Shown: positions 13,012-46,902 of the stretch, piece after piece
Layout of the letters: each line of letters opens with the position of its first letter
Numbering within the stretch: position 1 is the first letter of the stretch
Assembly (NCBI GenBank): GCA_951406725.2
Contig: OX597835.1
Coordinates: forward strand, 47,802,001-47,866,000
DNA from: Octopus vulgaris
Taxonomy: Eukaryota
Direction of reading: 5' to 3'
Length of the DNA stretch: 64,000 nucleotides
Position numbers and translations under genes: made by a program
The notes under the pieces: generated by a model
Told to the model about the DNA's origin: nothing
Databases searched by the model: none
Seen by the model: the letters and a program-made list of their open reading frames with translations, nothing else

Positions 13012-13066
<55 letters not shown>

Positions 13067-13392
13067 AAAATAGTAAAGTGTGAAAAAACGACAGAAGGCT
13101 TAAATGTTAAAAAATATATATATTTGTGTCAAAATGTCTGGAGAATATTGGAAAAATTTTTTTTTCCCTTTCCTTAAAATGACATAATTTTAAAATTTTT
13201 AAAGAAATTACCGGTTTCGCGTGTAGCTTTTCAAATTTCTTGTGACGTTATGTTTATATTGCATGGAGTTATCGTTGTGTTTATTTCCAGGAGATTTCTA
13301 AATAAGGGGAGGTAGTGAGTGATTTCTGGTCCCTGGTCCCTGGCTAAAAAATGTTGGGTGTAATTTTGTTTGTATGAGTTGTCTGTGAGGTT

Positions 13393-13773
13393 GTGTGGTA
13401 TTCGGTCGACACTAGGATAAGAAATACACCACACACAAATCACTACTACCCCATGAACCAAAACTACTGGTCCCCACCAAACACAAGACAAACGCAAAGA
13501 AACACTATGTCAAGCAACATCCCACATACAAGAAGTTCGAAACAAAAATATTCCCCATACAGAAATTTTACACACACCACAAGCATTAACAACCATAGAT
13601 TCCCACACACACACAACGATCGGAGGCAACAATACCACCACTCCCCCGACCAAATACCACACAACCTCACAGACAACTCATACAAACAAAATTACACCCA
13701 ACATTTTTTAGCCAGGGACCAGGGACACCAGGACACAGGCTGGAACCTAGTAATAAGGAAAAACCGAAGATAA
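13393..13773 (+). CDS. Upstream N/T/H/Q/P-rich ORF of the PLE (5'-truncated by the inversion)
   Basis: ORF track 126 aa. Overlaps the RT frame, which is offset by -1. Confidence 0.4.
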   Translation: MWYSVDTRIRNTPHTNHYYPMNQNYWSPPNTRQTQRNTMSSNIPHTRSSKQKYSPYRNFTHTTSINNHRFPHTHNDRRQQYHHSPDQIPHNLTDNSYKQNYTQHFLARDQGHQDTGWNLVIRKNRR

Positions 13774-14261
13774 TCAATCTTTCAACCAAACCTCTTTCTA
13801 ACATAAAAATTGACATCCTCGCAAAAGGGCTCAAATTTACACCAACTCCACGCAGAGCAAACCTAAATGAACTCAAGGATAATATAACAGAATTTTGCAG
13901 AAAATTAAGACTAGCAGAAGCATCAAACAGTTTCAATACTGAAGATGAATCACTAGTCAAGAACAAAAGTGAACACATCCCACACAGAGGAAGAAATAAA
14001 GATCTTGACGAATTCTGTAACCACATTGAGAACTTCCCCTACCATACTATACATAAACAGAAAGCTAACCCAAATTTTAACACTACACAATGGAAAGAAC
14101 TGATAGAACTCCAAAATGATGAAGATATAACCATTAAGGAAGCGGACAAGGGAAATGCAGTTGTAATAATGGATACATCATACTACAGAAATCTTGTAAT
14201 TTCCTTGCTTGATGAAGACCTACATTATGAAAAAATTACCAACTACACCCCACAAAAATAA
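13590..14261 (+). CDS. PLE polyprotein N-terminal region (not in ORF track; no early ATG)
   Basis: Manual translation: KIINLSTKPLSNIKIDILAKGLKFTPTP...EFCRKLRL...ITIKEADKGNAVVIMD, typical Penelope pre-RT motifs. Joins the next ORF via a 1-nt shift in an A-run at ~14255-14260. Confidence 0.85.
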
Positions 14262-15625
14262 TGAAAACTCTATCTTCACTAATTAAAACCCATGAAAAGG
14301 AACTGACAACCAAAGAGATTGATTTCCTAACAAACTTTAAATGCAAACCTAGCTTCTTCTATGGTCTGCCAAAAATTCATAAAAGTCAAATTATAAATGA
14401 AACCATTAAAAAATCACCAAAGACATACATACACACACCTAATCCGGGGGACCTAAAACTACGACCCATTGTAGCTGGCCCAACCTGTGAAACACACAGA
14501 CTAAGTCTACTTATGGACATCCTCCTGAAACCCTTCCTTAAACATATCGATAGCCATATCAGAGATGACTTAGATATGTTAAACCACCTTCCAAAAAAAA
14601 CCAAGGAAGAAACAATCCTGGTTTCATTTGATGTAGTCAACTTGTATACCAGTATACCTCATAATTATGGACTGGAGGCAATACAGTTCTGGTTAGACCA
14701 ATTTCCGGAAGAAATACCAAAAAGGATCAGTAAGGAATTCATTACTAAATCAATTGAATTCATCCTACACAATAACCACTTCATGTTTGACAATACATTT
14801 TACCGTCAAAAATCCGGAATTGCTATGGGTACAAGGGCAGCACCAGTCATTGCGAACTTAACAATGGGATACATGGAAATAATCATTTACCAGGAATCTC
14901 TATCAATCTTTGGAAACTCCCTCTCTCAATACATAAAAGAGAATTGGAAACGATTCCTAGACGATTGTTTCATTCTCTGGAATGAAAACATAGATAAACT
15001 CCTAAAATTTAAAAACCTATTGAACAGCATAAACCCAAATATACAGTTCACAATGGAATACAACCAAAAGGAGCTCCCGTTCTTGGATATACTAATTAAA
15101 AAAATTAACCTTAAAATAGAAACAGACATTTTTTACAAAGCCACAGACGCCAAACAATACCTTCTTTTTAATTCATGCCACCCAAGACACACTAAAACAA
15201 ACATCCCCTTCAACCTTGCAAGAAGGATATGCACAATAGTGTCAGAACAAAATACCAGAAACTTTAGACTGCAAGAACTCAAAAACACCCTAATTGACAG
15301 ACATTACCCAGCTCAACTCATAGAGGATGGGATCAGACGTGCAACAGAAATCAACATAGAAACTTTAAGAAAAGTTCAACACAACAACACACCTTCCCCG
15401 AAAATACTACCTTACATATCTACATACAACCCCAGAAACAAAGAAGCCTTCACCATCATCACCCAGAATTTACCAATACTTCATAAAAACCCAAAATTAA
15501 AGGAAATTCTAAACATACACCAAATCATTAAAAGCTACAAACAGCCTAAATCACTTAAAAAGATTCTCACAAAGGCAAAATTGTCTTCTAAAATTACGGA
15601 TGCAAAAGTAAAAAAAATGTGGTAG
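14261..15625 (+). CDS. Penelope-type reverse transcriptase
   Basis: FYGLPKIHK, LRPIV, SFDVVNLYTSIP, GIAMGT, RFLDD catalytic motif, LPFLD, SCHP. Confidence 0.95.
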   Translation: MKTLSSLIKTHEKELTTKEIDFLTNFKCKPSFFYGLPKIHKSQIINETIKKSPKTYIHTPNPGDLKLRPIVAGPTCETHRLSLLMDILLKPFLKHIDSHIRDDLDMLNHLPKKTKEETILVSFDVVNLYTSIPHNYGLEAIQFWLDQFPEEIPKRISKEFITKSIEFILHNNHFMFDNTFYRQKSGIAMGTRAAPVIANLTMGYMEIIIYQESLSIFGNSLSQYIKENWKRFLDDCFILWNENIDKLLKFKNLLNSINPNIQFTMEYNQKELPFLDILIKKINLKIETDIFYKATDAKQYLLFNSCHPRHTKTNIPFNLARRICTIVSEQNTRNFRLQELKNTLIDRHYPAQLIEDGIRRATEINIETLRKVQHNNTPSPKILPYISTYNPRNKEAFTIITQNLPILHKNPKLKEILNIHQIIKSYKQPKSLKKILTKAKLSSKITDAKVKKMW

Positions 15626-16034
15626 ATCGAACTGTGCAACATGTCCTAACCTATTGGAAGGATCAGAATTCTTCTTTAAAGAGGGACAGAAATTCAAGAT
15701 CAAATCTAACTTTACTTGTGCCTCTGAAAACATAATTTATGTTATTAAATGCTCGGGCTGCCACCAAGACTACGTGGGTTCCACGGGACTATCACTCAGG
15801 CGTAGATGCACACTGCATCGACAACAGATTGCATTCCCAGAATATAGAATGATACCTTTTAGTGAGCACATTGAGAAATGCGCAAAGCAACTACTGCCAC
15901 AATTTTTAATCTTCCCATTTTACCAATGTGCTTTCGGATCATCAACACAAATGAGACTGAACAAGGAAACATTCTTCATTGAAAAGTACAAACCCAGACT
16001 CAACCATCCGAACATACTGACACAGAGAAATTAA
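15618..16034 (+). CDS. PLE Cys linker + GIY-YIG endonuclease
   Basis: After a 1-nt shift in an A-run (~15610-15618): CGRSNCATC, then NIIYVIKCSGCHQDYVGST..LRRRCTLH..KETFFI..YKPRLN. Confidence 0.9.
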   Translation, partial: CGRSNCATCPNLLEGSEFFFKEGQKFKIKSNFTCASENIIYVIKCSGCHQDYVGSTGLSLRRRCTLHRQQIAFPEYRMIPFSEHIEKCAKQLLPQFLIFPFYQCAFGSSTQMRLNKETFFIEKYKPRLNHPNILTQRN

Positions 16035-16170
16035 CAAGGAAAACGGAAAAAAAATTTTTAAGCGATTATCTCCCTTACACCGGAAGAAATCACTCACTAC
16101 CTCCCCTTATTTAGAAATCTCCTGGAAATAAACACAACGATAACTCCATGCAATATAAACATAACGTCAC

Positions 16171-16210
16171 AAGAAATTTGAAAAGCTACACGCGAAACCG
16201 GTAATTTCTT
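16171..16210 (+). ncRNA. Minimal type I hammerhead ribozyme, U3-A8 core variant, in the PLE 3' pLTR
   Basis: aagaaat-UUGAAAA-gc tacac gc-GAAA-ccgg-UA-atttctt: 7-bp stem I and palindromic stem III. Inverted copy at 13202-13241. Confidence 0.75.
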
Positions 16211-16398
16211 TAAAATTTTTAAAATTATGTCATTTTAAGGAAAGGGGAAAAAAAAATTTTTTTCCAATATTCTCCAGACATTTTGACACAAATATATATA
16301 TTTTTTAACATTTAAGCCTTCTGTCGTTTTTTCACACTTTACTATTTTCTTATATATTCACCCACGTGCTTTACCAAACAAACTTTCTTATCTATATC

Positions 16399-42657: not shown

Positions 42658-42859
42658 TATATATACGAGTCTCTTTTGGTGTACGACGTTTCAATTAATA
42701 GAACCTGATCACTGATCTGCATTCAGCTGCCGTCATTATAACACCTTAGTCCACTAAGCGGATAGGCAAAAAGCGACCAATAGAATAAGTGCTAAGCTTA
42801 CATAGAATAAGTGCTCGGGTCGATTTATTCGACTAAAGCTGGTGCCCCAGCATGGCCGC

Positions 42860-43485
42860 AAGTTACAATCCGGTCGTTCTTGTTGCGTAAAAGAAGGATA
42901 GACGAGACTTCAAAACGGTGTTTGTTTTTTTGGTTGGCGTTCAATTCGTGCGGCACCCATTTCTCATGTATTTTTGTTTTTCCAATCCCTTTCAAGGGGT
43001 TGAACATTGTCGTATACATTACGTTTAATTCAGAAGCAAGCTCTTGAAAAGTTGTGCATGGTTTGGCTTCGACTAAAGCTCTTAGTTGATCGTAGTCAAC
43101 ATCCGATGGCCGACCACTACGCTTATCATGTTCAAGACTCTCGTTACCACTACGAAATTTCTTGAACCACCATTCTGCTGTACATTCATTAGTGGTCCCT
43201 GGGCTAAATACATCGTTGATATCGGGAGTTGTTTCAGCAGCTTTTGGGGCTAACTTGAACTGGAATAAGAAAATTGCGGGAATTAGCTTTTTGTCCATGT
43301 TGTATTCTACGTTTCGATAAAAATGGTATATTTATTCAAAAAGAAAAAGAGTAACAAGATGAGATAGAGCAAAGGGCTTTAAAATGATATATAATGTCAA
43401 AGTAATTTAGCGAAAATTGATTTGAAAATACATTATTTGAAAACAAAATTAAAAATTCCGTAAGAACTTTCTTGACAACCTAATA
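42860..43485 (-). mobile_element. Mariner 5' half (HTH domains), truncated at a SINE tail
   Basis: ORF 42825-43298 reads WFKKFRSGNESLEHDKRSGRP..KWVPHEL..RIVTC. TIR 'cttgacaacctaata' at ~43471-43485. Confidence 0.88.
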
Positions 43486-43631
43486 TATATATATATATAT
43501 ATATATTGTATAGAGGGCATTATTACACATAAATGCCTCACACTAGGAGGGACAAAGTCATTACTACCAAAATTATACTAATCATACCCAAATGCAGTTT
43601 TTCAAAGCAAGACATTTAAAAAATGAATTTA

Positions 43632-43687
43632 GTTCTGTATCACCGTGATTTCACATTCAACTTACGTCTAATGATCGTCAGCAGAAC
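43632..43687 (-). ncRNA. Type I hammerhead ribozyme (unit 1; also 44112-44167, 44591-44646, 45071-45126, 45551-45606 on minus)
   Basis: guucug-CUGACGA-u-cauu a gac GUAA guu g aaug-u-GAAA-ucac g guga-UA-cagaac. Confidence 0.85.
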
Positions 43688-45947
43688 TGATTCTGAACAC
43701 ATCATAAATAAACTACCAACCTTACGTAGCGAAGACGAACAGACAACTGCTCACTCCGGCCAAGCACATGGAATGTTTATAAATCATATATCCGGTAAAT
43801 GGCGGGCTTTTTTACGAACTGCATGTCGGGTAATGAAAAGTATTTCGGAATAAGTTTAACAATTAAGGATAATCTCTTAATAAGGGGTCTTAACAAGAAA
43901 TTATCGGGTAGCTAGCGTGAAAACCTCATAAAAGAAAAGAATCCGAAAATAATTTTTTTCTTTGAACAAATTAATTATATCTATATTGTATAGAGGGCAT
44001 TATTACACATAAATGCCTCACACTAGGAGGGACAAAGTCATTACTACCAAAATTATACTAATCATACCCAAATGCAGTTTTTCAAAGCAAGACATTTAAA
44101 AAATGAATTTAGTTCTGTATCACCGTGATTTCACATTCAACTTACGTCTAATGATCGTCAGCAGAACTGATTCTGAACACATCATAAATAAACTACCAAC
44201 CTTACGTAGCGAAGACGAACAGACAACTGCTCACTCCGGCCAAGCACATGGAATGTTTATAAATCATATATCCGGTAAATGGCGGGCTTTTTACGAACTG
44301 CATGTCGGGTAATGAAAAGTATTTCGGAATAAGTTTAACAATTAAGGATAATCTCTTAATAAGGGATCTTAACAAGAAATTATCGGGTAGCTAGCGTGAA
44401 AACCTCATAAAAGAAAAGAATCCGAAAATAATTTTTTCTTTTGAACAAATTAATTATATCTATATTGTATAGAGGGCATTATTACACATAAATGCCTCAC
44501 ACTAGGAGGGACAAAGTCATTACTACCAAAATTATACTAATCACACCCAAATGCAGTTTTTCAAAGCAAGACATTTAAAAATGAATTTATGTTCTGTATC
44601 ACCGTGATTTCACATTCAACTTGCGTCTAATGATCGTCAGCAGAACTGATTCTGAATACATCATAAATAAACTACCAACCTTACGTAGCGAAGACGAACA
44701 GACAACTGCTCACTCCGGCCAAGCACATGGAATGTTTATAAATCATATATCCGGTAAATGGCGGGCTTTTTACGAACTGCATGTCGGGTAATGAAAAGTA
44801 TTTCGGAATAAGTTTAACAATTAAGGATAATCTCTTAATAAGGGATCTTAACAAGAAATTATCGGGTAGCTAGCGTGAAAACCTCATAAAAGAAAAGAAT
44901 CCGAAAATAATTTTTTTCTTTTGAACAAATTAATTATATCTATATTGTATAGAGGGCATTATTACACATAAATGCCTCACACTAGGAGGGACAAAGTCAT
45001 TACTACCAAAATTATACTAATCATACCCAAATGCAGTTTTTCAAAGCAAGACATTTAAAAATGAATTATAGTTCTGTATCACCGTGATTTCACATTCAAC
45101 TTACGTCTAATGATCGTCAGCAGAACTGATTCTGAACACATCATAAATAAACTACCAACCTTACGTAGCGAAGACGAACAGACAACTGCTCACTCCGGCC
45201 AAGCACATGGAATGTTTATAAATCATATATCCGGTAAATGGCGGGCTTTTTACGAACTGCATGTCGGGTAATGAAAAGTATTTCGGAATAAGTTTAACAA
45301 TTAAGGATAATCTCTTAATAAGGGATCTTAACAAGAAATTATCGGGTAGCTAGCGTGAAAACCTCATAAAAGAAAAGAATCCGAAAATAATTTTTTTCTT
45401 TTGAACAAATTAATTATATCTATATTGTATAGAGGGCATTATTACACATAAATGCCTCACACTAGGAGGGACAAAGTCATTACTACCAAAATTATACTAA
45501 TCATACCCAAATGCAGTTTTTCAAAGCAAGACATTTAAAAAATGAATTTAGTTCTGTATCACCGTGATTTCACATTCAACTTACGTCTAATGATCGTCAG
45601 CAGAACTGATTCTGAACACATCATAAATAAACTACCAACCTTACGTAGCGAAGACGAACAGACAACTGCTCACGGATGTAAATCATTAAGCTGTATTTAT
45701 ATTTTCGAATCCGAATTTTATTTAAGATCCTAAAAGAATTATCCTTAATTGTTAAACTTATTCCGAAATACTTTTCATTACCCGACATGCAGTTCGTAAA
45801 AAGCCCGCCATTTTTGTTACCGAGATTATCCTAATTTATAAACATTCCATGTGCTTGGCCGGAGTATATGATTTATAAACATTCCATGTGCTTGGTTCGT
45901 CTTCGCTACGTAAGGTTGGTAGTTTATTTATGATGTGTTCAGAATCA

Positions 45948-46003
45948 GTTCTGCTGACGATCATTAGACGTAAGTTGAATGTGAAATCACGGTGATACAG
46001 AAC
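45948..46003 (+). ncRNA. Type I hammerhead ribozyme (inverted units; second copy 46428-46483)
   Basis: gttctg ctgacga tcattagacgtaagttgaatgt gaaa tcacggtga ta cagaac read directly. Predicted cleavage after 45997 and 46477. Confidence 0.85.
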
Positions 46004-46855
46004 TAAATTCATTTTTTAAATGTCTTGCTTTGAAAAACTGCATTTGGGTATGATTAGTATAATTTTGGTAGTAATGACTTTGTCCCTCCTAGTGTGAGGC
46101 ATTTATGTGTAATAATGCCCTCTATACAATATAGATATAATTAATTTGTTCAAAAGAAAAAAATTATTTTCGGATTCTTTTCTTTTATGAGGTTTTCACG
46201 CTAGCTACCCGATAATTTCTTGTTAAGATCCCTTATTAAGAGATTATCCTTAATTGTTAAACTTATTCCGAAATACTTTTCATTACCCGACATGCAGTTC
46301 GTAAAAAGCCCGCCATTTACCGGATATATGATTTATAAACATTCCATGTGCTTGGCCGGAGTGAGCAGTTGTCTGTTCGTCTTCGCTACGTAAGGTTGGT
46401 AGTTTATTTATGATGTGTTCAGAATCAGTTCTGCTGACGATCATTAGACGTAAGTTGAATGTGAAATCACGGTGATACAGAACTAAATTCATTTTTAAAT
46501 GTCTTGCTTTGAAAAACTGCATTTGGGTATGATTAGTATAATTTTGGTAGTAATGACTTTGTCCCTCCTAGTGTGAGGCATTTATGTGTAATAATGCCCT
46601 CTATACAATATAGATATAATTAATTTGTTCAAAAGAAAAAAATTATTTTCGGATTCTTTTCTTTTATGAGGTTTTCACGCTAGCTACCCGATAATTTCTT
46701 GTTAAGATCCCTTATTAAGAGATTATCCTTAATTGTTAAACTTATTCCGAAATACTTTTCATTACCCGACATGCAGTTCGTAAAAAGCCCGCCATTTACC
46801 GGATATATGATTTATAAACATTTAAATATATATATATATATATATATATACTCTT

Positions 46856-46902
<47 letters not shown>

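Follow-up and report, generated by a model that had tools for sequence, protein, structure and literature searches.

Animal non-LTR retrozymes are described as non-coding tandem units without long terminal repeats (LTRs), each of which carries a type I hammerhead ribozyme (Cervera and de la Pena 2020, PMC7229834; Li, Clavereau and Pollet 2026, bioRxiv 10.64898/2026.07.22.740005). The involvement of Penelope-like elements (PLEs) was deduced from their co-occurrence and from homology to the pseudo-LTRs (pLTRs) of PLEs (PMC7229834; Li 2026), and a 2020 review presented retrozyme repeats as carrying no motif that points to a helper (PMC7761336). How these repeats reach new sites, i.e., the enzyme, the primer and the template, is still a model. 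PLEs are known to leave tandem as well as inverted copies, to bear a tail on one end only and to prefer (TA)n (Craig 2021, PMC8557442). The purified protein of a lizard PLE cuts and extends both strands, two internal RNA start sites define the tail, and a dimer is predicted (Frangieh 2024, PMC11167929). The present analysis concerns an array of 480-nt hammerhead units within a stretch of 64,000 nt of Octopus vulgaris DNA (assembly GCA_951406725.2, contig OX597835.1, positions 47,802,001 to 47,866,000; the window). The reading considered here with fair confidence is that the unit represents a dispersed non-coding hammerhead family with Penelope-type ends, i.e., a non-LTR retrozyme, copied by the reverse transcriptase (RT)-endonuclease of a PLE, probably from a circle.

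By its sequence, the family appears to belong to the known non-LTR retrozymes, an identity already proposed in a preliminary description of the window made from the letters alone, and every genomic feature of that class is found in it. Besides the tandem non-coding units with one type I hammerhead each and no LTR, these features include the GC content (34%), a self-paired monomer, a weak stem III suited to dimers and the co-occurrence with PLEs. The unit had been thought unusually long, but its size falls within the reported range of 51-972 bp (Li 2026). It differs from described families in its U10.1-U11.1 apposition and in being known from DNA alone. To our knowledge, no sequence family matches the unit. 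Newt and axolotl satellite hammerheads resemble it in dimer-dependent cleavage via a weak helix III (predicted here), but their units are 330-350 nt long with up to ~126,000 motifs, compared with ~800 exact motifs in this family (A) and its sister family B together. In the literature covered, with many journals, supplements and Repbase outside it, neither a cephalopod retrozyme nor two-site PLE ends on a retrozyme were found.

The 56-nt hammerhead motif has seven matches in the window, against a mean of 0.00 in 100 shuffles. The units are 479-480 bp long, 98.8-100% identical and non-coding, the longest ATG-started frame being 33 aa on the ribozyme strand and 69 aa on the opposite strand, and (TA)n bounds the array on both sides. 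All this agrees with the preliminary description, whereas the single tandem run that it assumed does not exist. Tandem Repeats Finder reports two separate arrays, with five motifs on the minus strand, two on the plus strand and a scrambled junction between them (table 1). The hammerhead is present on just one strand of the unit. The ribozyme strand of either arm points outward and stops in (TA)n. The array is a single insertion of a dispersed family. The idea that it was written in one rolling-circle event is retained as to the one insertion and abandoned as to the one rolling run, because two opposite arms start from two priming sites. The scrambled junction may have arisen by repeated template jumps or by end-joining repair.

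Table 1. Features of the window related to the hammerhead array; q denotes positions in the unit, with q1 at window position 45895.
Feature	Position	Strand	Remarks
Penelope-like element (RT, GIY-YIG-like C-terminus)	13065..16392	+	5' arm in inverted orientation; both ends in (TA)n, with ~38 nt between them
(TA)n target run, left	43483..43506	.	merges with priming site S1 of left arm
Left arm, 4.5 units	43502..45673	-	ribozyme strand reads leftward; 3' end S1 (q239-245), 5' end q467
Hammerhead copy 1 (type I)	43632..43687	-	motif match
Hammerhead copy 2	44112..44167	-	motif match
Hammerhead copy 3	44591..44646	-	loop 2 GCAA, not GUAA; within unit 44221-44699
Hammerhead copy 4	45071..45126	-	motif match
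Hammerhead copy 5	45551..45606	-	motif match
5'-5' inversion junction	45674..45894	.	~65 nt filler, then q350-424, q346-356, q437-468, q432-461
Right arm, 1.9 units	45895..46822	+	ribozyme strand rightward; 3' end q449, off-rule (S2, q367-372, expected)
Hammerhead copy 6	45948..46003	+	cleavage predicted at 45997/45998; stem II closed by U-U (10.1-11.1); stem III nearly palindromic
Predicted monomer RNA, 480 nt	45998..46477	+	cleavage site to cleavage site; ends paired in fold, z = -5.8
Priming site S1	46133..46139 (q239-245)	+	directly 3' of hairpin invariant in 12/12 aligned units
Priming site S2	46261..46266 (q367-372)	+	from arm-end mapping
TATA-like box (46332-46339) and CAGTT initiator-like motif (46366-46370)	46332..46370	+	putative RNA polymerase II start
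Hammerhead copy 7	46428..46483	+	predicted cleavage 46477/46478
(TA)n target run, right	46826..46850	.	from the sequence

Matches to the unit are distributed over many chromosome-scale contigs (198 among the 40 scored of 1620 candidates), and exact hammerhead motifs of families A and B number 805, with 0 in the reversed control. Family A copies are young, with 99-100% identity. In total, 96 arms were mapped in 55 family-A loci, namely the window, 37 loci from the match list, 15 of the 20 fetched from the top of the exact-motif list (the other 5 being family B) and 2 from searches for Tx1-like long interspersed nuclear elements (LINEs). Twelve arms were excluded, seven with a Tx1 junction as 5' end and five short pieces, which left 84 for the analysis.

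The insertions of the unit show the tail-and-inversion anatomy of PLEs. The 3' ends are located at two fixed sites in 73 of the 84 arms, i.e., S1 (q232-245, n = 32) and S2 (q361-372, n = 41), spaced 127-133 nt apart, and TA-rich sequence is found at 72 of these 73 ends. The 5' ends are scattered around the unit (Rayleigh p about 0.13). Dispersed arrays with variable copy number and permuted ends had been anticipated; the first two are observed, but only the 5' ends vary. All 31 inverted junctions are divergent and none is convergent. Among them, 26 pair S1 with S2, the same site is never used twice, and an off-rule or cut end occurs in five, including the window. Both priming sites are kept in families B and D, with ends at homologous sites.

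The fixed two-site ends, the inverted arms and the (TA)n target make the mobilisation of the unit by PLE-type machinery, suspected from the beginning, very probable. Contrary to the view of the 2020 review (PMC7761336), here the insertion ends themselves point to the helper type. Shared with endonuclease-bearing (EN+) PLEs (PMC8557442, PMC11167929, PMC4209133) are the (TA)n target, the inverted 5'-truncated arm, the two RT start sites, the one-end tail and the hammerhead ahead of the start sites. The unit is distinct from them in having no open reading frame (ORF), in a hammerhead with a full 4-bp stem III and palindrome instead of the minimal type, and in sharing no sequence homology with any sampled PLE family. 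The putative non-autonomous Chlamys PLEs, e.g., MRC1, are similarly non-autonomous, multicopy, head-to-tail and moved by PLE machinery, but at the 3' end they are similar to their autonomous partners, and their clade reportedly lacks canonical hammerheads (Craig 2021, PMC8557442).

Three observations speak against this mobilisation. The S1-S2 interval far exceeds the 30-40 bp tail of PLEs, the right arm of the window stops off the rule at q449, and no DNA similarity was detected between the unit and the window PLE, the PLE-P family (see below) or other PLE tails in the fetched loci.

The hammerhead core elements CUGANGA, GAAA and UH are found in this order in 7/7 window copies. Stem I pairs 6/6 and is extendable to 7, the sole change within the motif replaces GUAA by GCAA in unit 44221-44699, and the same cleavage position, 45997/45998, is predicted on re-analysis, all as first described. 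Within family A, both core position 7 (C, G or U) and the N of the GNRA loop are variable. Families B (unit of 476-481 nt, 75% identical to A, 459 exact motifs) and D (older, 63-76% identity) keep the core and stem III, with variation again at position 7. The sequence comparison indicates that stems I and II differ between the three families yet stay paired. In A and B, stem I comprises 6-7 bp; in D it comprises 5 bp plus 2, and the letters differ. At 10.1-11.1, the pair that closes stem II, D has G-C, B has G-U or A-U and A has a non-standard U-U, which Perreault 2011 reported as a natural variant. The loss of core or stems in other copies, which had been named as an argument against the proposal, is not seen in the sister families.

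Stem III as drawn has a one-base loop, with 0 kcal/mol for the lone hairpin and -11.9 kcal/mol between two copies, and such a dimer arrangement of hammerheads has been described (Cervera 2014, PMC4209133). Local fold scores (90 nt) over the hammerhead were not above shuffles, which is expected of a dimer-dependent motif, and no support is taken from them. On these comparisons the hammerhead is likely to be catalytically competent. Several points count on the other side. A search with Rfam models gave no match to any family, hammerheads included, at the gathering score on the window, and only chance hits without a hammerhead on 45800-46900 at E up to 10; the hammerhead of the window PLE was likewise missed at the gathering score. 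The U-U at 10.1-11.1 together with the weak stem III would predict slow cleavage. Among frog retrozyme dimers, 8/9 were without cleavage in vitro (Li 2026, bioRxiv 10.64898/2026.07.22.740005). In the case of the lizard PLE, the predominant substrate was RNA that had not been processed, the hammerhead required protein, and insertion in vitro was hammerhead-independent (Frangieh 2024, PMC11167929).

The fold of the monomer is more stable than that of shuffles, with z of -5.8 for the linear form and, for the circular one, -5.6 in sense against -3.8 in antisense. In an alignment of 12 units, 19 of 81 pairs of a consensus structure derived from that same alignment, and thus not independent of it, change on both sides, compared with 2-5 in slid controls. 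In the independent test, pairs taken from B show 9-14 both-sided changes in A and D (2.4-6.1 expected, p 0.001-0.018), and pairs taken from D show 11-12 (4.8-5.8 expected, p 0.006-0.027). Pairs taken from A are less favourable, being borderline in B (6 both-sided, p about 0.05) and weak in D (8-11, p 0.08-0.27). In most of the cross-family tests the number of both-sided changes lies above the null, and the three lineages give moderate support to selection acting on the fold of the whole unit.

As for the template, arm length varies (median 673 nt, up to 5.9 kb), and 48 of the 84 arms exceed one unit, which shows that it contained unit junctions. The predicted cleavage site is crossed 163 times against 1 stop (within 5 nt), and the putative transcription start 143 times against 6 stops, where 2.5 are expected and other 15-nt windows have up to 8. 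No pile-up of 5' ends among the 84 arms was present at the cleavage site, and that at the putative start was not significant. This is an indication that templates seldom had a 5' end at either position. In the variant analysis of 38 loci, variants common to several loci were fixed in all covering units of an array in 112 cases and partial in 19; private variants were fixed in 7 cases (4 of them in both arms) and partial in 68. For instance, one private variant of locus L043 is present in 13/13 units and both arms.

A dimer-dependent hammerhead would cut multimers and spare the monomer circle. The read-through, the clonal arrays and this sparing favour a ligated circle as template, and a monomer circle is judged, from these sequence patterns, somewhat more probable as the usual template than other forms. 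Several points run counter to it. The loci were chosen as best matches to the full unit, which favours long arms. In the window, unit 44221-44699 has variants that belong to another subfamily, a mosaic not accounted for by one clonal circle; it may stem from a template switch, conversion or a polishing error. The block patterns of a 31-motif array (see below), the hammerhead-independent insertion in vitro and the inactive frog dimers likewise count against the circle. Of 18 sequencing runs, from 8 studies and 4 organisms, that contain at least half of the words searched, none is recorded as RNA, and the four that were inspected gave contigs only. In one of them, X1, a contig of 510 nt comprises the full unit plus 30 letters, as expected for a closed 480-nt cycle with 31-letter words; it would result from tandem DNA, a multimer or a circle alike and is not used as evidence.

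The same family could be moved by the same PLE machinery from an uncleaved linear read-through transcript, in which case the hammerhead would be slow, protein-dependent or used elsewhere, and circles would be absent or a by-product. This explanation would fit a slow ribozyme, but it is unlikely, though the least unlikely of the alternatives. The frequent reading through the putative start, with no more stops than in other 15-nt windows, stands against it, as do the clonality of the arrays for subfamily variants, the private variant of L043 and the conserved core, which implies cleavage that would break multimers wherever dimers form.

Two young PLE families of the genome were analysed further. 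In the window copy of the first, the frame is broken near 14260 and again near 15620; its minimal hammerhead of the U3-A8 type (16171-16210) is kept across the family, and 811-aa open frames of that family exist at many loci. The second family, PLE-P (loci L248-L265), has 775-aa open frames at many loci, with all 150 scored matches identical over 226 aa, a 4270-bp tandem period, ends 32 nt apart and a hammerhead-like motif with a CCGAAGA core and U-U. It is probably among the most recently active PLEs of the genome. The pairing of opposite sites holds in both families at the three clearly readable loci (the window, L152 and L264), while L158 is ambiguous. In both, a cysteine motif precedes the endonuclease, which is a character of the Neptune and Nematis clades (Craig 2021, PMC8557442).

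A PLE like the one at 13-16 kb had been suggested as a possible mover. The target and anatomy of that element are indeed like those of the unit, but it shares no sequence with the unit and its frame is broken, and its family is a candidate helper only. Neither PLE family has sequence in common with the unit. The unit family is young, its strict two-site ends match the behaviour of purified Penelope protein in vitro, and PLEs with open frames reside in the same genome, so that the question of mobilisation becomes directly testable with a defined RNA and target, two predicted start sites and two candidate enzymes. The evidence on retrozyme mobilisation is unusually direct here.

The resemblance to PLEs also raises the possibility that the units are the pLTR of an autonomous PLE and the loci its 5'-truncated copies. 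The order within the unit matches that of the PLE-P pLTR (TATA, CAGT, a hammerhead with U-U, two ends), the distance from cleavage to S1 is 136 nt compared with 140 and 150 nt in two PLEs, and frog retrozymes are homologous to PLE termini (Li 2026, bioRxiv 10.64898/2026.07.22.740005). A rare master element, or descent from the pLTR of an extinct PLE, would be variants of this view, given that the family was sampled in part. It is nevertheless improbable. The arms that exceed one unit run into another unit and never into a PLE frame, and no RT/GIY-YIG frame was found in or between units in the 55 family-A loci. Nor did a PLE frame occupy the position expected next to a pLTR in these loci, in 13 loci of family B or in 30 of family D. 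Two candidates were rejected in this respect: a PLE-P piece at L028 is no twin arm, as it meets the array 3' to 3', and the 5.3-kb insert of L021 is not the missing master element but a Tx1-like LINE.

Tx1-like LINEs could themselves be the movers of the unit, since some copies contain them. Seven Tx1-type 3' ends lie inside the unit, all at q469-q11 with four distinct junctions, and two Tx1-type 5' ends away from arrays begin with 24-25 nt of unit sequence from q466-472. However, this explanation has very little probability. With queries from unit-inserted copies, 3' ends were inside the unit in 4/30 and 2/30 cases and outside it in 26/30 and 28/30, so that Tx1 was rejected as a unit-specific element; the unit insertions stop at S1/S2 in (TA)n and not in LINE tails. 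Several of the seven junctions have target duplications, which identifies the Tx1 copies as guests. The genome-wide Tx1 count covered the q469-q16 site only, where these LINEs insert in other copies, and the rest of the unit was inspected in the 55 loci.

Equally improbable is the amplification of a local satellite through unequal exchange, in which the inversion would be an assembly fold-back and the hammerhead a relic or a chance motif: local amplification has been proposed for such arrays (Li 2026) and one long array has block patterns, but neither fold-back nor unequal exchange can give dispersed young copies with fixed asymmetric ends, and paired changes keep the motif across three lineages.

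One 28-nt spot of the unit hosts both a Tx1-like LINE (APE-RT, 5.3 kb) and a related ORF1-only element (1.7 kb), at L021:2457-7742, L047, L044, L190/L073, L057 and L039. At L047, the long element terminates in the tail of the short one, as if a second round of unit plus insert had begun. Tx1-like LINEs also form head-to-tail arrays with a spacing of 5.25-5.3 kb (G000:C27:32.95-32.99 Mb, C22:14.18-14.25 Mb and C58), in which each 3' end adjoins the 5' region of the next copy. Next to q466-472, ~33 nt behind the TATA-like box, families A and B have a CAGTT motif, of which D has a degenerate form. A scan for bacterial promoters, which is ill-suited to this genome, detected none. We take these to be start motifs of RNA polymerase II, and the site may be a putative transcription start; alternatively, the apex of a hairpin at the same place could be what matters.

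Returning to the retrozyme copied by a PLE, the following course may be proposed. Transcription from the TATA/CAGTT promoter of each unit would read through the neighbouring units. Two hammerheads are predicted to pair via the palindromic stem III and cut at q103/104, whereas a lone monomer, unable to form stem III, would stay intact. A host ligase, as in known retrozymes, may then close the monomer, the ends of which would be held by stem I. The PLE protein would cut (TA)n, and complementary DNA (cDNA) would start at S1 on one end and at S2 on the other, as the anatomy shows, while the enzyme is deduced. Each cDNA strand would circle the template for a variable distance, and the two 5' ends join in the divergent and often scrambled junction that is observed.

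More tentatively, a Penelope-type dimer may copy a small circular ribozyme RNA at the two ends of a single DNA break, with one subunit at each of two structure-defined sites 130 nt apart, although this RNA has no sequence homology to its helper. The RNA would then be part of a nested ecosystem of at least four hammerhead repeat families that join by template switching (B to C at L168), with Tx1-like LINEs inserting at the unit start, borrowing its promoter and maybe riding an enlarged circle. If this is true, a PLE would recognise a passenger RNA by its shape, the tail being three to four times as long as usual. The 'replicon' reading of the unit, i.e., RNA-to-RNA copying, finds no support here.

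Some loci of the sister families have additional characters. In L267-L268 (G000:C1:64.640-64.655 Mb), 31 consecutive family-B hammerheads are found and a short variant pattern returns every 14-16 units. This sequence pattern suggests block duplication or local expansion after insertion, a point in favour of local amplification. At L168:3500-4900 (G000:C1:70.536-70.538 Mb), a tandem family C with a 353-nt unit (fold z -5.0), a canonical hammerhead and a palindromic stem III is joined directly to a family-B arm at the CAGTT motif of B, an arrangement suggestive of a template switch from one retrozyme RNA to another. On C1, a gap of 2.9 kb between motifs of family B contained (TA)n and family C but no ORF.

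The host genome seems rich in hammerhead-like motifs. Unrelated single-copy ones with a palindromic stem III occur at L029:2532, L032:1421, L171:4535, L173:4338 and L174:7607. At L021 (1290-1330 and 8586-8630), the flanks beyond both (TA)n runs are mutual inverted copies of ~11 nt. Just left of the array in the window, on the minus strand at 42825-43331, lies a remnant which presumably resembles the N-terminus of a mariner transposase.

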